Source: Planctomycetota bacterium (GTDB lineage: Bacteria; Planctomycetota; PLA2; JAEUHO01). From it: 64,000 nt of DNA. Each line of letters begins with the position of its first letter. Within the stretch, counting starts at the first letter, position 1. The translations under genes were made by a program, and so were the position numbers. The notes beneath the pieces are model-generated. The model was not told where the DNA came from. It saw only the letters and a program-made list of their open reading frames with translations, and did not search any database. Below are positions 5,982-48,644 of the stretch, piece after piece. The stretch covers positions 304,523 to 368,522 of the forward strand of contig CBDCWP010000039.1 in the NCBI GenBank assembly GCA_965223505.1, given 5' to 3'.

Positions 5982-6033
5982 TCGCACCTCCTCTTCAAGG
6001 TGCTATATCACGCCGTTCTTGCCTCCCAAGTTT

Positions 6034-6495
6034 CTACTGTCGCTCAATGGTCGAGATGAGCGCTTCGGCTCGCTTTCGTGCGTCCCCTGATGAGCCGTCG
6101 CGGATCGCCTTGATGGAACGTAGGTGCATCGGGTCGGCGAGGTCCTCCAAGATCGTGAGTATCTCGTCCACGCGACTCCCGCTCTTCGACTCCATGTCCC
6201 AATGCACTAGATTGGCGACCAGGGCGGCGCGGCGAGCTCCATTGGTCTGACGAACCGCCTTGATCAACGTTGGCCGACACGAGACCCAATCACCCTCGCG
6301 AACCACTCGAGCGGCAAGTCCTGCTGCGTTGTCATTCGCGCCTGTGAGAGCGGCTTCCCACCTTTCGCGTGCTTGCGAGTCATCACCGCTTCGCATCATC
6401 AGCCGGGCGTAGATCATCTGCTGCCAGGCATCCCCTGCGTCTTCCTCCAGTCGGCTCGACGCGAAGACAATCGCATCCTTGCCAGGTTGGATCAT
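6034..6495 (-). CDS. Helical/HEAT-like hypothetical protein, probably 5'-truncated
   Basis: Amphipathic helical pattern, weak RBS, abuts the transposon end. Confidence 0.5.
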   Translation of the reverse strand: MIQPGKDAIVFASSRLEEDAGDAWQQMIYARLMMRSGDDSQARERWEAALTGANDNAAGLAARVVREGDWVSCRPTLIKAVRQTNGARRAALVANLVHWDMESKSGSRVDEILTILEDLADPMHLRSIKAIRDGSSGDARKRAEALISTIERQ

Positions 6496-6520
6496 CCCCG
6501 AGAGATAGCGCTTGTGTCCC

Positions 6521-7627
6521 CTACGCGTTAGGCCGCGTCCGCCAAGCGGAAACTAGTGTTGATAAGCGCCCTCTCCGGAACTGTAGATAGCCGTGCTTGC
6601 AGAGCGTTCTCTGCGTCGCGCTGCGGTCGATTGACGCGCGCTCGATGCACGTCGGCATTCTAGCGTTTCTTTCCTTGAATGTCTTGAGCGCGGCATCGGT
6701 CTCGAACTTCAGATCGTGCTCAAATGCCGTTCTCTCTTGCCTCGTGATCGGCCGGCGGTCTTCAAGAGCCTCCGCCGGCGTCGGCCCAGTCGCACCCCAT
6801 GGCCTCGCCGTCGTATTCGCAACGAGCAAGGCGTCGTCGAGGTTTTGAGGTAGCCAGATGCGGGGATGTCCTTCCATCTGCGCGATGTGCTGTACACGTC
6901 GCTTGAAGTTCCCGCCGCTGCGCTCGCACGCGCCGTTGTAGGCGGGCGTGTACGGCGGCGACGTGAGTGGCGTGATGCCGTGCTCCTCGAGCAACGCGGC
7001 CGTCTGTTCCGAGCGAAACGCGCCCGCGTTGTCCTTCTTCAGAATCAGCGGCGCTCCGAACAGCGTGATCAAAGCGAGCAGCGCCGCGCACACAGTCTTC
7101 GTCTTCTCGCCCCGGCAGGCTACGGCCGCCAGCTGCGCTCCGCTTCCGAGATCGCGAACCAGGAACAGTCGATCCTTGCCCTGCCAGAGGCCAGCCTTGG
7201 GCCTGGTGAAGTCCGCCGCCCACACCGCCCCGGAACGAACCCACTCTAGCCGCTTGCGATACCAGCGCCATCGACGCAGCGCCACCCGTAGCAGGCGCCT
7301 CTTCATCTCTGAAAGCACGCGATACGGTACGTCGCTGAACATGCCCCGAAGTACGGCCACACCCGAGAACGGCCCCAGCTTGAACATCGCATGCAGCACC
7401 TTCTGCCGCTTCGCTCGTGGTACGTCATCGGCCTTGCGGCCACGCTTCTCGTACACCGGCTTGCCCTGGCGAACGCGAAGCTCCCAACGCCTGATCGTTC
7501 GCTCGGCCACGCCAAGGACTCGCGCCAGGTAGGCGCGTGTTTCCTTGTCCCAGCCACTTCGCCGCATCACCTCCACGGCCTGAAGCCGGAACTTCACCTG
7601 CTCCTCGTACGACATCTTCTCGCTCAT
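6521..7627 (-). CDS. DDE (rve / integrase core) transposase 2 with N-terminal HTH (368 aa)
   Basis: WAADFT, LKKDNAGAF, YNGACER; GGAGG RBS; ATGA overlap with the upstream HTH gene. Confidence 0.88.
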   Translation of the reverse strand: MSEKMSYEEQVKFRLQAVEVMRRSGWDKETRAYLARVLGVAERTIRRWELRVRQGKPVYEKRGRKADDVPRAKRQKVLHAMFKLGPFSGVAVLRGMFSDVPYRVLSEMKRRLLRVALRRWRWYRKRLEWVRSGAVWAADFTRPKAGLWQGKDRLFLVRDLGSGAQLAAVACRGEKTKTVCAALLALITLFGAPLILKKDNAGAFRSEQTAALLEEHGITPLTSPPYTPAYNGACERSGGNFKRRVQHIAQMEGHPRIWLPQNLDDALLVANTTARPWGATGPTPAEALEDRRPITRQERTAFEHDLKFETDAALKTFKERNARMPTCIERASIDRSATQRTLCKHGYLQFRRGRLSTLVSAWRTRPNA

Positions 7628-42577: not shown

Positions 42578-44032
42578 ATGAAGCTCGCCTCCGCCCTCGT
42601 CCTGTGCTTTCTGAGCTGCGCCTGCGGTCCCGAAGAAGCGGCGCCGCGCGACGCCGCGCCGCAAGGCACATGGGTCGAGATCGACGAGGACGAGCCCATC
42701 GAGCTCACGGGGAATCCCACGGCCCCGGGCGACGCCATCCTCACGCCGCCGCGCGGTCGTTGGTTGTTCACGCGCGAGGTCGTCGACGGCGCCGAGTTCT
42801 ACCTGCGCTACGAGGATCCTGGCACGGTGCTCATGCAGGCGCAGGTCTTCGAGGTGCAGGGACCGCGCGATCCCACACCGGTGCTCAAACAAGCGGTCGA
42901 CCGCTTGCACCGGTTGCGCAACATCGACGGCGTCGGCTGGGGCGCCGGCAAGGTGCTCGACATCTGGGGCCGTCCCGCCGCCGAGCGCAGCTTCCAGAGC
43001 GCCTCGGCAGGGCAGCGACGCGCGGGTTTCGCGCGACTCCTGCTCATGACCGATCACAAGTGGGCGTTCGCGTGGTGCGACTTTCCGGGCGACGCCGACG
43101 AGGCGATGCGCGAGACCGCCTACGCGTTCGTGCGCTCGCTCGAGCCCAAGGAACCCGCGTTCTACACGCCGGCCTTCCGCGCCCTCGCGCGCCTGAACGG
43201 CCGCGTGACCGCGGTGGCCGGCGAAGAGCCGGTGCTCGGCCGCCACGTCGCGGCCGTCCAGCTCTGCCTCGAAGCGACCGTCGGGGTGCGCGCGCCGCTG
43301 AGCGAGCGCACCAAGATGTTCGACGCCGTCGTGACCGGGTTGCACAACGACACGGTCGAGACGCGCAAGGGCTTCCGCGAGTCCGGTGAACGCGTCCGCG
43401 AGTGGATGGCGCTCGACCTCGAGGAGCGGCTTCCGAACTTGGAAGCGCTGGGCGCGCAGGTGATGAAGGGCCTGGTCGCCCGCGCCGAGAAGGGCGACAT
43501 CGCCGCCGCGCAGGTGCTGCTGACCTTGAACGGTGCGGGCGCCTTCCCGATCGGCGACCGGGCCGACGGTCTCTCGCAGTTCCATCTCGACGGCTGGATC
43601 GAGATGTGCGCGTTCCTCGTTTCCATCGCACGCGACGAGAAGGTCGTGCTGACGGACGAGCACCGCGCGCGGATGCGGAAGGCGCTGCACGCGCGCTGGG
43701 AGACGTCGCTCGATCGCGAGAGGGTCGAGCTTCGTAGCACCGACCGCCAGTGGGCGGCGCTGCGCCGTGCCTGGGACCTCGCCGACGGTCCGCAGCGGCC
43801 GCGCGCGCACTTTCGGCGCCTGGTCGCCGAGTACCTCGCGCCCGACCCCGCCAAGGGCGACGTCCGCTCGCTGACGAACCTGCGCGACCTTAAGAGCTGG
43901 ATGCTCGATCTGCGCGAGCAGGCGTCGCTGGAGAGCCTGCTCGACCGTGCCGGCGCTTTGCCCGCGGCGGACCGCGCGGCGCTGTTCGACGCGCTCGGCG
44001 TGCCGTCGGACGGTTACCAGCTCGGCTGGTAA
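42578..44032 (+). CDS. Hypothetical lipoprotein
   Basis: MKLASALVLCFLSCAC signal / lipobox. Confidence 0.75.
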   Translation: MKLASALVLCFLSCACGPEEAAPRDAAPQGTWVEIDEDEPIELTGNPTAPGDAILTPPRGRWLFTREVVDGAEFYLRYEDPGTVLMQAQVFEVQGPRDPTPVLKQAVDRLHRLRNIDGVGWGAGKVLDIWGRPAAERSFQSASAGQRRAGFARLLLMTDHKWAFAWCDFPGDADEAMRETAYAFVRSLEPKEPAFYTPAFRALARLNGRVTAVAGEEPVLGRHVAAVQLCLEATVGVRAPLSERTKMFDAVVTGLHNDTVETRKGFRESGERVREWMALDLEERLPNLEALGAQVMKGLVARAEKGDIAAAQVLLTLNGAGAFPIGDRADGLSQFHLDGWIEMCAFLVSIARDEKVVLTDEHRARMRKALHARWETSLDRERVELRSTDRQWAALRRAWDLADGPQRPRAHFRRLVAEYLAPDPAKGDVRSLTNLRDLKSWMLDLREQASLESLLDRAGALPAADRAALFDALGVPSDGYQLGW

Positions 44033-44099
44033 GCCCGCTCGCGCCACGCAGGCCCGCGGGCTAGGATCCGCCTCCCCGCGCCGAACCTGGGAGGACCGC

Positions 44100-45689
44100 A
44101 TGCGGCACGCCGCGATCTCCATCTTGCTTCTTCTGCCGTTGCTCGCCGTCGGCGCGTGCAGCTCCGACGAGGAAGGCGACGGCTCGCTCAAGGTCGTGCT
44201 GAGCCACGGCGCGAACAGCCGGCCGTATCTGCCGTGGCCGCGCGACGTCGCCAAGCAGGTCGCCGGCGACCTCGAAGACGTGGGCTTCACGGTCGAGATC
44301 CGGCCCGAGCCGTGGAGCGCCTACATCCCGACGGTGACGAACGGGCGCCATCAGCTGGCGCTGCTCGGTTGGTCGCCGGACCTTCCGGACACCGACAACT
44401 ACCTCGTTCCGCTCCTGCACTCCGACAGCTCGGAGATCGGCTCGGCCAACAACATCAGCTTCTACCGCAACGAGGCGTTCGACGCGTTGCTCGACGAGGC
44501 GCGCCTGCCGCACACCCGCGAGGAGCGCGCGGCCCTCTACGAGAAGGCGCTGCGCATGGTGTTCCGCGACGTGCCGATGGTGCCGCTGATCTACGCCGAC
44601 CGGCGCATCGCGTTCCGCAAGGGCCTCGCGCCGCTCCAGGTGGAGTGGGTGACGCATCCGCTCATCCGGCGCGTCACCGAGGCGCCGAGCGACACGCTGG
44701 TGTTCCTGCGGGGCGCCGACTCGAACAGCCTCGACCCCGGCGACGTGACGGACGGCGAGAGCAGCAAGGTGATCGAGCAGGTCTTCGATCGTCTCGTACG
44801 CTACGTCCCCGGCACGCAGGACGTCGAACCGGCGCTGGCTACGTCGTGGTCGCAGAGCGACGATCACAAGGTCTGGACGTTCCAGATTCGCGAGGGCGTG
44901 ACGTTCCACGACGGGTCGGCGCTCGACGGGGCCGCCGTCGCGACGACGTTCGAGCGCATGCGCGACCCGAATCACCCGTATCACTTCCCGGACGGCAAGT
45001 GGGACAACTGGAAGGGCAGCTTCCAGCGGCTGATCGGCAAGGTCGAGGTCGGCAGTCATCCGATGGAGGTCGTGTTCCGCTGCAACCACGCCGCGCCGAG
45101 CTTCTTCCTGCACATGCTGGCGATGTTCGGCTGCTCGATCATCTCGCCCGCCGCGCTCGAGAAGCACGGGGCCGACATCCGCATCAACCCTGTCGGCACG
45201 GGCGCGTTCAAGTTCGTGAAGTGGGACAGCGGCCGCGAGATTCACCTCACGCGCAACGACGACTACTGGGACGGGGCGCCCAAGCTCAAGGACGTCTACT
45301 TCCGCATCTCGCAGGACGCGACGGTGCGCGCCGACCGGTTGATCGCCGGCAGCGGGGCGGATCTGATCGACAACCTCGGACCCGACACGATTCCGCAGCT
45401 CGAACAGACGGAGTCGGTGGTCGTGTCGAAGCTTCCGCAGTCGAGCTTCTGCTACCTCTCGATGAACTGCTTGAAGCCGCCGTTCGACAATCCCAAGGTG
45501 CGCGAGGCCGTGGCCTACGCGCTCAACAAGGAGAACTTGATCAAGCTCGCCTACCGCGGGTACGCGAAGCCCGCGCTCGTTCCGACGTTGCCGAGCTTCG
45601 TGGGCTTCCCGAAGGACCTGGAGGATCGCCCCCACGACCCCGAGAAGGCCAAGGCGCTGCTGCGCGAAGCGGGCTACGACGTGAAGTAG
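44100..45689 (+). CDS. Family-5 (DppA-like) ABC substrate-binding lipoprotein, circularly permuted
   Basis: VGAC lipobox; RPYLP..LLGW..YRN..ER..LY..VP block precedes TLVFLRGAD..LDP..FHDG..PVGTGAFKF..DPEKAKALL. Confidence 0.92.
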   Translation: MRHAAISILLLLPLLAVGACSSDEEGDGSLKVVLSHGANSRPYLPWPRDVAKQVAGDLEDVGFTVEIRPEPWSAYIPTVTNGRHQLALLGWSPDLPDTDNYLVPLLHSDSSEIGSANNISFYRNEAFDALLDEARLPHTREERAALYEKALRMVFRDVPMVPLIYADRRIAFRKGLAPLQVEWVTHPLIRRVTEAPSDTLVFLRGADSNSLDPGDVTDGESSKVIEQVFDRLVRYVPGTQDVEPALATSWSQSDDHKVWTFQIREGVTFHDGSALDGAAVATTFERMRDPNHPYHFPDGKWDNWKGSFQRLIGKVEVGSHPMEVVFRCNHAAPSFFLHMLAMFGCSIISPAALEKHGADIRINPVGTGAFKFVKWDSGREIHLTRNDDYWDGAPKLKDVYFRISQDATVRADRLIAGSGADLIDNLGPDTIPQLEQTESVVVSKLPQSSFCYLSMNCLKPPFDNPKVREAVAYALNKENLIKLAYRGYAKPALVPTLPSFVGFPKDLEDRPHDPEKAKALLREAGYDVK

Positions 45690-45695
45690 CCAGGC

Positions 45696-46712
45696 ATGCT
45701 CGTCTTCCTCGTTCGCCGGATTCTGATCGCGATTCCGCTCCTGGTCGCGGCGTCGCTGATCGTCTTTCTGGTCGTCTCGGCGTTTCCCGGCGACCCGTGC
45801 GCGGAGCAGGTCAAGTACAAGACCAAAGAGGCCATGGCGGCCTGCCGCAGCTCGCTCAACCTCGACGGGCCGCTGCACGAGCGCTACGCGCGCTACATCA
45901 CCCGCGCGGCGCAGCTCGACTTCGGGCACGACGTCTACAACGACCGGCTGCAGGTCGGCGACGAGCTGAAGAAGCGGTTCCCCGCGACGGCCGAGCTGGC
46001 CATCGTCGCGCTCGTGATCGCGTACTTGATCGGCACGTGGGTCGGGACGCGCTCCGCGCGGCGGCCCGGCACCTGGATCGACGCGTTGGGACAGATCCTC
46101 AGCCTCGGAGGCATCTCGATCCCGGTCTTCTGGCTCGGCATGATCCTGATCGCGGTCTTCGGCGTGAAGCTCGGGTGGTTGCCGTTCGAGGGTTGGAGCG
46201 ACACGGCCATTGCCGGGGAGGACTACTACCGGACACGCTGGTGGCTGTTCGAGCCGCTGTTCCGCTTGGACTTCGGAACGTTCTTCACGGCCCTGTCGCA
46301 CATCACGATGCCGGCCATCGCGCTCTCGACGATCCCGTTGGCGACGATCACACGCATGACGCGCTCGTCGATGCTCGAGGAGCTCGGCAAGGACTACGTG
46401 ACCACCGCCCGCGCGAAGGGCCTCTCGGAGCGGCGCGTCGTGAAGAAGCACGTGTGGCGCAATGCGCTGATCCCGATCATCACGATCACGGGCCTGCAGC
46501 TCGGAACGCTCCTGTCGGGCGCCGTATTGACCGAGCGCGTGTTCAGCTGGCCGGGCCTCGGCACCTACATGATCGACGCGGCCCTGCGAGTGAACCACTC
46601 CGTCCTCATGGGCTGCATGTTGCTCTTCGTCGTGACGTTCGTCGTCGTGAACCTCGTCGTGGACCTGCTCTACGGCGTCATCGATCCTCGCATCAGGCAC
46701 TCGAGAGGATGA
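45696..46712 (+). CDS. Peptide ABC transporter permease (DppB/OppB type)
   Basis: FPGDP, FPATAEL, DYVTTARAKGL, VFSWPGLG. Confidence 0.95.
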   Translation: MLVFLVRRILIAIPLLVAASLIVFLVVSAFPGDPCAEQVKYKTKEAMAACRSSLNLDGPLHERYARYITRAAQLDFGHDVYNDRLQVGDELKKRFPATAELAIVALVIAYLIGTWVGTRSARRPGTWIDALGQILSLGGISIPVFWLGMILIAVFGVKLGWLPFEGWSDTAIAGEDYYRTRWWLFEPLFRLDFGTFFTALSHITMPAIALSTIPLATITRMTRSSMLEELGKDYVTTARAKGLSERRVVKKHVWRNALIPIITITGLQLGTLLSGAVLTERVFSWPGLGTYMIDAALRVNHSVLMGCMLLFVVTFVVVNLVVDLLYGVIDPRIRHSRG

Positions 46713-47551
46713 GGGAGCGTCTCCGCGAGATTTGGCGGTCTCTGAAGCGAGAGCGCGGCGCGATGTTGGGCCTCGGCCTGCTGGTGATCGTGCTGCTCAT
46801 GGCGTTCTGCGCGCCGTTGGCGCCGTACGGCCCGAAGGAGAGGGATACGAGCGTCGGCACCGCCGGTCCGTCGTCGGCGCATCTGCTCGGAACGGATGCC
46901 AGCAGCTACGACGTCTTCTCCCGCTTGCTCTACGGCGCGCGGACGTCGTTGCTCACCGGTCTGGCCGCGATCATGTTGGCGTTGCTGATCGGCGTACCGA
47001 TGGGGGCGTTGAGCGGATACGCCGGCGGCTGGGTCGACGGGTTGCTCATGCGCACCGTGGATGTGATGCTCGCGTTCCCGAGCGTCGTGCTCGCCATCGC
47101 CATCGCGACCATGCTCGCGGACCGCACCGTGACCACGGTGATCATCGCGGTCGGGATCGTGAACATCCCGACCGTGGCGCGGCAGGTGCGGGGGTCGGTC
47201 CTGCAGGTGCGCGAGCAGGACTACGTGCTCGCGGCGCGTTCGTTGGGCTACAGCCCGCTGCGGATCATCGCGAAGCACGTGCTGCCGAACTGCGTCGCGC
47301 CGATCATCGTCCTCTCGACACTGGGCGTCGGGTACGCGATTCTCTCCGCCGCCGGATTGAACTTCCTCGGCTTGGGGCCGGAAGCGCGCGTCGCGGAGTG
47401 GGGCGTGATGCTGGGCGAGGTGATGAAGCACATTCGCCAAGACGAATGGTGGATTTACGTTCCACCGGGCGTCGCGATCGCGGTCACGGTGCTCGGATTC
47501 AACCTGATGGGCGACGGGCTGAGGAAGGCCCTGGACCCCAGAGCCCGATAG
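46709..47551 (+). CDS. Peptide ABC transporter permease (DppC/OppC type)
   Basis: HLLGTD, RLLYGARTSL, HVLPN, FNLMGDGLR. Confidence 0.95.
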   Translation: MRERLREIWRSLKRERGAMLGLGLLVIVLLMAFCAPLAPYGPKERDTSVGTAGPSSAHLLGTDASSYDVFSRLLYGARTSLLTGLAAIMLALLIGVPMGALSGYAGGWVDGLLMRTVDVMLAFPSVVLAIAIATMLADRTVTTVIIAVGIVNIPTVARQVRGSVLQVREQDYVLAARSLGYSPLRIIAKHVLPNCVAPIIVLSTLGVGYAILSAAGLNFLGLGPEARVAEWGVMLGEVMKHIRQDEWWIYVPPGVAIAVTVLGFNLMGDGLRKALDPRAR

Positions 47552-47841
47552 CGGCAAAGTGGGGGTTGGGGCGAGCCGTTTGGCGAAGCCAAACCGAGCC
47601 CGCAAGGGGGTCTTGGACCCCCTTGAAGAAGAAGCTCTCAGGTCGGACCCGCGCGAAGCGCGGGTCTCCCGAAGGCGAAGCCTGAGGGCCGAGCCAAGCG
47701 AGGGACCGGTCGCGGCCCGTAGGGCCGCGAGGGAGCTTGTGGATCTACGTCCCGCCCGGCGTTGCGATCGCGGTCACGGTGCTGGGCTTCAATCTGATGG
47801 GGGATGGGCTCAGGAAGGCCCTGGATCCCAGAGCGAGATAG
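47552..47841 (+). repeat. Hairpin-rich spacer followed by a diverged copy (47740-47841) of the dppC 3' end
   Basis: 34-codon copy of 47450-47551 with 14 changes, all synonymous. Confidence 0.9.
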
Positions 47842-48056
47842 GGGTTGGGCTCGAGACCGGACGCGAGCGGCGTCCCCGCACGATCGACGGCGTGAACGCG
47901 GACGCGCGCGTGATCGCGCACGATCGCAACACGGGGGGCGGGCCCCTGGGCGCCGGCATCGCCGTCGGATTCGGGGGCGGGTTCGGTACCGGGTCTGCGG
48001 GCGGGCCCGTGCGCCCAAATGACTATTCGATGACGGGTCAGCCGGACCCTATTGAC

Positions 48057-48644
48057 ATGAATCGTTCCGCCATCCTCACCTGCTGTCTCCTCCTCGGACT
48101 CACCGCGTGCAGCAGCACGAGCGCCGACAAGGCCGGCCAGAAGTCGGACGGGTTCCCCGCACCGAGCAAGGAGCTCGTCTACCGCGCCGCCCTGAACACG
48201 ATGCGCCAGTCGGGCTTCGTTCCCGACGCCGCCGAGTCGTCCATCACCTCCGGCTACGCGACGTCGCGCTGGAACACGTCGCTACAGCCGTTCGCCGGAC
48301 GAGGACGCCGCGACAAGGCGACGATTCGCATCCACGAGGTGCCCGGTCGCAAGGGGTACTACCGCGTCGAGACGAACGTCACGCGCGAATACAACATGAA
48401 CGTGACCGAGCCCAGCAACCCCGTCGCCGCGCAGTGGAAGAACAGCGAGCGCGTGTCCGACCTCGAGAACCTGATGACGCGCAAGATCGAGATGCAGTTC
48501 ATCACGATGGGTCCGAGCGCCGAGTTCCGCAGCCGGTACGACCTGCCCGAAGACAAGCAGCGCCTCAGGAACCTCGATCCGAAGGAGAAGGACAAGAACT
48601 TCCTCGACGGGTTCATGGAAGGGTTGACCGGGGACGGGGGATAG
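48057..48644 (+). CDS. Hypothetical lipoprotein
   Basis: LTAC lipobox. Confidence 0.8.
   Translation: MNRSAILTCCLLLGLTACSSTSADKAGQKSDGFPAPSKELVYRAALNTMRQSGFVPDAAESSITSGYATSRWNTSLQPFAGRGRRDKATIRIHEVPGRKGYYRVETNVTREYNMNVTEPSNPVAAQWKNSERVSDLENLMTRKIEMQFITMGPSAEFRSRYDLPEDKQRLRNLDPKEKDKNFLDGFMEGLTGDGG

Follow-up and report, generated by a model that had tools for sequence, protein, structure and literature searches.

Can the binding receptor of an ATP-binding cassette (ABC) importer begin its chain in the middle of the fold and still be a working receptor? The question is raised by a gene at 44100..45689 on the plus strand of a 64,000-nucleotide stretch of Planctomycetota bacterium DNA (GenBank assembly GCA_965223505.1, contig CBDCWP010000039.1), referred to here as the window. 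A first-pass annotation, made from the letters alone, had proposed that the gene encodes a DppA-type substrate-binding protein (SBP) that is naturally circularly permuted over its full length, with the membrane anchor moved to the other lobe. We confirmed that the circularly permuted order is real and conserved. Our reading, to which we give a probability of roughly 0.87, is that the gene product is a working, membrane-tethered SBP lipoprotein of the Dpp/Opp type, which has the ordinary three-domain, two-lobe cluster C fold on a circularly permuted chain. The protein is a topological variant inside the family SBP_bac_5 (family 5), not an outsider to it. The features of the gene are as follows.

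44100..45689, plus strand: permuted SBP gene, encoding a DppA/OppA-type lipoprotein of 529 residues (P0001).
44089..44095, plus strand: Shine-Dalgarno-like GGGAGGA, 4 nt before the ATG, read from the sequence.
44100..44159, plus strand: signal peptide and lipobox, residues 1-20 (...LLAVGAC), with Cys20 presumed lipidated, from the translation.
44160..44183, plus strand: short acidic tether, residues 21-28 (SSDEEGDG); the predicted local distance difference test (pLDDT) score is below 50 for residues 19-26.
44181..44675, plus strand: block 1, residues 28-192, corresponding to the last third of the canonical family-5 SBP chain (profile positions 353-517), from hmmsearch and from phmmer against PDB.
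44661..44693, plus strand: fusion junction between the old C-terminus and the old N-terminus, residues 188-198 (...LIRRVTEAPSD), from the profile tiling.
44679..45680, plus strand: block 2, residues 194-527, corresponding to the first two thirds of the canonical SBP chain (profile positions 25-352), from hmmsearch and VIA-align.

The sole Pfam family found in the protein was SBP_bac_5 (PF00496), matched in two stretches with an E-value of 1e-86 and 291.8 bits against a cut-off of 32.4. A Pfam scan of the own genome matched profile positions 2-286 and 299-365 at two places of the protein in swapped order. Two high-scoring segment pairs in swapped order against DppA, as the permutation predicts, were then found by phmmer run against all PDB chains. 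With Helicobacter pylori DppA (6ofq), query residues 199-526 corresponded to chain residues 32-369 (independent E-value, i-E, 1.5e-49) and query residues 55-166 to chain residues 392-503 (i-E 4.4e-17); with Escherichia coli DppA, query residues 196-527 corresponded to 27-369 and 40-162 to 382-502. We further built a canonical profile of 521 positions from 175 canonical colinear relatives. Hmmsearch with this profile placed residues 28-192 on positions 353-517 and residues 194-527 on positions 25-352, so that the profile was tiled with no duplication and with only the canonical leader and the last four positions missing. The canonical N-to-C order of segments (lobe 1a/1b/1a, lobe 2, lobe 1 tail) was absent; most of lobe 2, with the last strand of lobe 1, falls in block 1, and lobe 1, with the beginning of lobe 2, in block 2. 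At the junction, profile position 517 is followed by one unaligned residue and then by position 25, within ...LIRRVTEAPSD-TLVFLRG. The chain ends in ...DPEKAKALLREAGYDVK, with the stop two residues past ...AKALLREAGY. The segment order read by the first-pass annotation therefore holds at all three points: the C-terminal DppA block stands directly behind the lipobox (residues 28-192 on positions 353-517), the canonical N-terminus follows a short linker (TLVFLRG from residue 199, whose base, 44694, had been given correctly), and the chain closes with the motif that normally precedes the first block (residues to 527 on positions up to 352).

Structure prediction, which the annotation had proposed as a check, gave a single confident fold. 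AlphaFold2 run on an alignment of 53 rotated relatives returned a mean pLDDT of 93.9 and a predicted template modelling score (pTM) of 0.88. Only residues 19-26 fell below 50, the junction scored 94-97, and the leader was modelled as a helix of residues 2-17 with low pLDDT. The top structures for the model in Foldseek and VIA-align were GbpA and DppA, with Z scores of 29-30 and root mean square deviations (rmsd) of 1.6-2.4 Å over about 330 residues. In VIA-align, GbpA (3m8u) gave a Z of 29.7 and an rmsd of 1.6 Å over 330 residues, and E. coli DppA (1dpp_A) a Z of 29.1 and an rmsd of 2.3 Å over 329 aligned residues, with model residues 198-529 lying on chain residues 1-343. Because the swapped segment pairs, the exact tiling of the profile and the confident single-fold model agree, we accept the circular permutation; conservation of the order among relatives and contigs that run across base 44690, described below, complete the case for a natural, full-length one.

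The only family-matching open reading frame at the locus is a single long frame at 43947..45689 on the plus strand, with the ATG at 44100 as its likely start. The protein begins with MRHAAISILLLLPLLAVGAC, a lipoprotein-type leader with a Cys at residue 20. The lipobox, ...LLAVGAC(20), matches the usual pattern both by eye and by regular expression.

The rotation is shared by many relatives. We sorted the best 120 homologues, drawn from NCBI, JGI, ENA and Logan assemblies, by segment order against a canonical reference (P0089), which gave 65 with the rotated and 55 with the canonical order; the sorting script mislabelled P0042 because its leader matched. A homologue survey, likewise proposed by the annotation, covered 79 loci, one genome per species, each re-examined by tblastn. 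Eighteen were colinear with the query, two carried a second rotation, eight from Chloroflexota/Anaerolineae carried a third, and 51 were canonical. Seventeen of the 18 colinear loci came from metagenome-assembled genomes (MAGs) labelled Planctomycetota, Planctomycetia or Planctomycetales. The other, and the only non-planctomycete colinear locus, was found in a MAG of Candidatus Hodarchaeum mangrovi (L019, 5619-7169) at 33% identity, with the permease genes on the opposite strand; it could reflect an independent origin, transfer or binning contamination.

Within the phylum we drew an even sample of 200 other genomes. All four sampled genomes of the own family gave a colinear, near-full-length match at 53-89% identity. 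None of the best matches from the four sampled genomes of the sister family was colinear over the whole query: three comprised the canonical large block only (query residue 195 or 198 to 526), and that of the fourth (G108) reached query 158-526. In one further genome of the phylum the match was colinear over query 33-355 (G126:C836:3911-4849), which suggests a further breakpoint in a planctomycete genome. Of the eight family-5 SBP genes of the own genome, the gene at 44100..45689 is the only rotated one; the other seven each match the profile in a single stretch.

Two of these rotations concern the clade of the query. We call type A the order seen here, with the break between profile positions 352 and 353, and type B the second rotation, with a break at positions 257-263, about 90 positions earlier. 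In the main clade, a regular expression picked out a lipobox-type Cys in 51 of the 56 type A proteins and in all seven of type B.

How the cut falls on the two lobes was worked out from the lobe boundaries of MppA, carried over by the DppA superposition and the profile tiling. In MppA, lobe 1 consists of residues 23-284 and 509-537 and lobe 2 of residues 288-506, as given in the accessible part of the report (PMC6022919). By these boundaries, the chain of canonical SBPs begins and ends in lobe 1, and lobe 2 is continuous. In the permuted SBP, the mapping would place both termini inside lobe 2, so that lobe 1 would be one continuous segment and lobe 2 would be split. The chain would start with the lipoprotein leader and a 9-residue tether, enter the lobe-2 strand at profile position 353, run to the old C-terminus, pass through the short conserved linker to the old N-terminus, and end after the ...AKALLREAGY helix at position 352. 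The lipid anchor would then hang from lobe 2. Canonical sister proteins (P0065, P0129) are lipoproteins too, with an N-terminal anchor in lobe 1, and the anchor would therefore really change lobe. This supports the proposed move of the anchor, from lobe 1 to lobe 2, as far as mapping by homology carries it.

The tether differs as well. Counted between the lipobox Cys and the first strand of the core, it is 9 residues long in the permuted SBP; among proteins with a recognisable lipobox, the medians were 12 residues for type A (n=51 of 56), 7 for type B (n=7) and 28 for the canonical sisters (n=11 of 13). The shorter tether may be adaptive, or it may be a by-product of the deletion that created the new N-terminus.

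Where in the family did the rotation arise, and how often? For the trees, domain hits were placed into the columns of the canonical profile, so that rotated and canonical proteins could be read in one frame; FastTree was run on 255 rows, and IQ-TREE on 78 rows in quick mode and with LG+C20 and posterior mean site frequencies (PMSF). In the 78-row tree, types A and B together form one clade, with a support of 100 in the Shimodaira-Hasegawa-like approximate likelihood ratio test (SH-aLRT). Canonical lipoproteins form its sister clade (SH-aLRT 99), and more canonical proteins surround it in the tree. Type B comprises P0036, P0043, P0048, P0053, P0054, P0055 and P0058; its two loci, L012 and L013 (both 6001-7482, labelled Planctomycetota), represent the same orthologous operon as that of the query, with DppB 59-60% and DppC 68% identical to those beside the permuted SBP. 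The type B cut, estimated from the profile tiling, probably lies near the lobe boundary; if it lay at the boundary, the chain would be left with a single crossing between the lobes. In the tree, the type B proteins form two groups, both within the type A clade. Approximately unbiased (AU) tests on 34 rows under LG+G4 did not reject a single type B clade (p 0.109) and marginally rejected a single type A clade (p 0.049, a borderline value).

Other rotations lie further out. A search of representatives gave 62,816 matches at E <= 0.001, of which the best 150 were examined; with eight proteins that we sought for their greater length, 156 were examined together. Fourteen further proteins with segments out of order were found among the 156, and each of them tiles the profile completely. 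Breaks near 353 recurred in P0131, P0149, P0206, P0210, P0211 and P0230; a break at 282-289 was seen in P0160 (type B', Methanofastidiosia), one at 183 in P0168 (type C), and breaks near 139 (type D) in P0176, P0208 and the C-terminal modules of P0218, P0259 and P0261. All ten outlying representatives inspected start with a leader, which has a lipobox in eight; P0149 and P0206 have a hydrophobic leader without one. The Chloroflexota/Anaerolineae loci of the survey (L021-L025, L027-L029), among them Leptolinea tardivitalis YMTK-2 (L029, 647-1921), break near query residues 306-313, that is, near profile position 139. Their rotated gene often stands as two tandem copies beside DppB and DppC genes. 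Most lineages with other rotations are scattered over the tree and have canonical proteins as their sisters. The label canonical or rotated has to switch at least 10 times on the 78-row tree, and well-supported branches force eight of these switches; the count is provisional, since several of the lineages are single cluster representatives from short contigs. Rotation has thus arisen repeatedly in family 5.

In the route that we propose, the gene of a canonical lipoprotein SBP was first duplicated in tandem or fused in frame. The first copy would then have lost, in frame, a stretch behind its leader, and the second would have been truncated, to give the present form. Such double proteins exist in the family. 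In P0130 (1202 residues), two complete SBP copies (59-550 and 551-1042) stand head to tail, each most closely related to the other, and similar head-to-tail fusions are P0125, P0245 and P0174, the last with four copies in 2754 residues. A pair of proteins records a rotation at close range: P0160 (585 residues, labelled Methanofastidiosia) and the canonical P0158 (574 residues) are 78-80% identical in both blocks and have their lipoprotein leader and their C-terminal membrane anchor in common, around a core that is rotated in P0160. This points to a very recent permutation with both ends of the precursor kept in place, a form that is expected from two internal in-frame deletions in a tandem copy.

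The order could instead have come about by fission and re-fusion, in which the gene was split at the lobe-2 loop and its halves were reordered and fused again. Such a course gains some credit from the failure to find a close duplicated intermediate, and from the breakpoint itself, a surface loop that tolerates the insertion of a whole SBP: in P0254 (1036 residues) one SBP is inserted in another at profile positions 355-357, the breakpoint loop of the gene at 44100..45689. Nevertheless, the canonical proteins nearest to one half of the permuted protein are also the nearest to the other, and the composite tree has good support. Moreover, full head-to-tail fusions occur in the family, two internal deletions in a tandem copy explain the leader and anchor around the rotated core of P0160 while fission and fusion do not easily do so, and two different breakpoints (types A and B) occur in one orthologous operon. 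We therefore regard fission and re-fusion as unlikely and prefer duplication followed by trimming.

A broader proposal would be that family-5 SBPs are a natural 'rotating' scaffold, in which tandem duplication and trimming re-cut the same ring at a few permissive loops, and that in tethered receptors the cut may be selected and not neutral. We put this forward tentatively, as a possible view on which doubt prevails. If it were true, the cut would move the anchor to lobe 2, allow a much shorter tether and alter how the receptor is presented to the permease.

What the protein does is suggested by its binding site and its neighbours, of which the following features are relevant.

44220..44222, plus strand: codon of Arg41, equivalent to E. 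coli DppA R383 in the phmmer alignment.
44379..44381, plus strand: codon of Asp94, equivalent to E. coli DppA D436 in an ungapped alignment, counted by hand.
45696..46712, plus strand: DppB/OppB-type permease gene, 6 nt past the SBP stop (Pfam BPD_transp_1, 8.1e-42, and BPD_transp_1_N).
46709..47551, plus strand: DppC/OppC-type permease gene, overlapping the DppB stop by 4 nt (Pfam BPD_transp_1, 5.9e-31, and OppC_N, 1e-10).

In E. coli DppA, according to the accessible part of the report (PMC12136057), R383 and D436 form salt bridges to the carboxylate and the amino group of the bound dipeptide, respectively, and double charge reversal of the pair abolished binding and transport. Both R41 and D94 are invariant in all 53 aligned rotated members of the family. 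The ligand would be a small molecule whose amino group and carboxylate are both free, probably a di- or oligopeptide; it would be held between the lobes by Arg41 and Asp94 and passed to the DppB/DppC-like permeases encoded directly downstream, with transport powered by ATPases encoded elsewhere in the genome. We concluded that the gene product is, by prediction, the receptor of a peptide-type ABC importer.

A DppB-type permease gene follows the SBP gene directly in 16 of the 20 type A and B loci. Of the remaining four, two end at the SBP gene, one is a short contig without a match, and one is the Hodarchaeum locus with its permeases on the other strand. The best NCBIfam matches of the DppB-type permease of the window were Opp2B and DppB, both below their cut-offs. 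ATPases with the oligo_HPY domain were found on three contigs of the own genome (C13, C17 and C44 of G000). Those on C13 and C44 adjoin other SBP genes. On C17, one open frame of 632 residues has two oligo_HPY matches; it may be a fused double ATPase that perhaps serves the orphan operon of the permuted SBP.

Two further genes of the neighbourhood encode probable lipoproteins, for neither of which a Pfam or NCBIfam match was found. One lies upstream (42578-44032, plus strand, about 484 residues, MKLASALVLCFLSCAC...) and stands directly upstream in 14 of the 20 type A and B loci; in ESM Atlas its best scores were 0.86-0.88 with no family, and only weak PsbP/DcrB-like leads were obtained. The other is small (48057-48644, plus strand, MNRSAILTCCLLLGLTAC...) and is found, at varying distances downstream of the permease genes, in 11 of the 20 loci, on the same strand in 10 and on the opposite strand in one (L013).

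Might the protein be functional but repurposed, a tethered sensor or chaperone-like binder that merely stands beside the permeases and is not a transport receptor? SBPs are known to feed signalling proteins, as described in the accessible part of a published account (PMC8050422), the operon has no ATPase genes, and a conserved lipoprotein without an assigned function precedes the SBP gene in those 14 loci. Against this stand the tight arrangement of SBP and permease genes (a 6-nt gap, then a 4-nt overlap), which is syntenic in 16 of 20 loci, the invariant ligand-binding pair, and the presence of ATPases of the right type elsewhere in the genome. Repurposing thus seems improbable to us, and a role as transport receptor is favoured.

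Nor does the gene behave like a decaying remnant, that is, like something left behind by a tandem duplication, no longer folding or functioning and passed on together with the permease genes. Past duplications at the locus are indeed recorded just downstream, by a direct repeat of 106 nt and 86% identity (47449-47554 and 47739-47844) in which the 3' end of the dppC-like gene is copied 290 nt downstream into intergenic sequence; we take it for the relic of a local duplication. The ratio of nonsynonymous to synonymous substitution rates (dN/dS) of the SBP gene against its 88%-identical orthologue in L001 is, however, 0.15 overall, with 0.14 in block 1, 0.087 in block 2, 0.058 in residues 180-210 around the junction and about 1 in the leader. 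In the alignment of the 53 rotated relatives, whose identity goes down to 31%, 29 columns are invariant, among them the ligand residues. With the profile tiled completely and no element missing, a mean pLDDT of 93.9, and the gene being the sole SBP gene in a conserved operon, decay is hardly credible.

An artefact of assembly or gene calling, in which two canonical SBP genes or a collapsed tandem repeat were misjoined and the permuted frame would be absent from the cell, might be suspected from the draft state of the genome (44 contigs, 92% complete), from a word depth of just about 4-6 in the contigs aligned to the window and from the frequency of tandem SBP genes in relatives (L022, L024, L033, L044), but it is already refuted in practice by contigs of two runs that cross the junction without a difference, by the same order at 17 other loci labelled Planctomycetota, Planctomycetia or Planctomycetales in different assemblies and in all four same-family genomes, by a gene that has its own leader, ribosome-binding site and stop codon between non-SBP neighbours (gaps of 67 nt upstream and 6 nt downstream), and by strong purifying selection at the junction. 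The two Logan contigs concerned (X1 record 1, 43800-45147, and X2 record 12, 44476-45451) have no differences from the window and bridge base 44690, across which the first-pass annotation had advised a check; X1 and X2 are two runs of one sample, possibly the source sample. Contigs of X4 gave only short pieces of 90-99% likeness, probably from relatives. Joints such as 43995>45151 and 44395>45742 were considered as alternative forms of the gene and rejected: they have only 21-48 letters on one side, occur in single metagenome contigs, and were taken as unrelated sequence.

Several observations weigh against the reading of a working lipoprotein receptor with a permuted cluster C fold. Superposition on solved structures was limited to residues 193-529; block 1 could not be superposed because both aligners are sequential, and its placement in the fold draws on homology (i-E 4.4e-17) and on the pTM of the model, which make it probable. 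The residue at position +2 after the lipobox Cys is Ser. The Pfam scan found no ATPase gene in the operon. The NCBIfam equivalogs DppA, GsiB, SapA, NikA and OppA all scored far below their cut-offs (200.4 bits against 1005 for the DppA equivalog, NF043070), and the low DppA, GsiB, OppA and NikA scores mean that the specificity could differ from dipeptides. The designation 'DppA-type' is thus sound for fold and family and overstated as to DppA orthology, and the best name is DppA-like. The ligand, the lipidation and the transport of the permuted SBP are all inferred. As to its origin, no close tandem intermediate was found in the own clade by the search for longer proteins, which is weak evidence with its eight matches, all at or below 39% identity, and the head-to-tail fusions that were found are distant, at 32% identity.

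Clean, conserved permutations that can be aligned on both sides are uncommon, which makes this one good material for the study of protein-topology evolution. For comparison there are canonical sisters, complete tandem fusions, one SBP inserted into another at the same loop, and a canonical/permuted pair of very recent origin. The second rotation in the same operon and the recurrence of rotations across the family add to its interest. For transporters, the case is a natural experiment on whether docking and Venus-flytrap motion depend on the tethering point and on the continuity of each lobe. For engineering, the recurrent breakpoints mark loops that tolerate termini or insertions in a widely used class of biosensor scaffolds. 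In annotation, permuted members match the family profile in two pieces that are out of order, and this one scores far below every NCBIfam equivalog cut-off tried; such proteins may therefore be given a wrong size or no specific name.

We compared the permuted SBP with the solved cluster C, family-5 SBPs (1DPP, 1DPE, 8Z1Y/8Z1Z, H. pylori DppA 6OFQ, GbpA 3M8U, OppA, MppA and NikA). It shares with E. coli DppA and its kin the Pfam family, the fold and 31-35% identity over about 330 residues, and with E. coli DppA also the pair that would hold the ligand termini (the R383 and D436 equivalents) and the type of partner permease. It departs from the solved proteins in a rotation of the chain by roughly a third, which puts the new termini at 352/353 in lobe 2 and fuses the old ones, and in being a lipoprotein whose short tether would extend from lobe 2. 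The best 60 PDB matches, of 84 distinct sequences matched at E <= 0.001, bear names of peptide-, nickel-, opine-, sialic-acid- and heme-binding proteins of the DppA/OppA/NikA type, and none of these 60 has the chain order of the query. Types B, B', C and D resemble it in family, complete tiling of the profile and N-terminal leaders, and differ from it in breakpoint (about 257-263, 282-289, 183 and 139, respectively).

A literature search found, among the entries looked through, no published permutation of a family-5 SBP, DppA or OppA, most subscription journals being outside its coverage, so that absence is not proven. The sole published natural SBP permutation that it found belongs to a different cluster: TpMglB-2 (Tp0684) of Treponema pallidum, a naturally permuted cluster B sugar-binding lipoprotein. 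In the accessible part of that report (PMC4990184), the authors proposed a 'Type Ic / Cluster Bc' for it and speculated on an adaptation to tethering. The permuted SBP resembles TpMglB-2, as far as the same text describes it, in being a natural, conserved permutation of the binding lipoprotein of an ABC transporter, and TpMglB-2 keeps ligand binding and Venus-flytrap movement. The two are related by analogy only: TpMglB-2 belongs to cluster B and has the type I fold, there is no homology at the family level, and in the permuted SBP only PF00496 was found and no homology of the MglB type. The rearrangements differ too. In TpMglB-2, by that account, the N-terminal three strands of one lobe have moved to the C-terminus and a fourth hinge crossing has been added, whereas the hinge crossings of the permuted family-5 SBP should stay two. 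Finally, the permuted part of TpMglB-2 is described there as barely alignable (13% identity), whereas both blocks of the permuted family-5 SBP align at E-values of 1e-17 or better.

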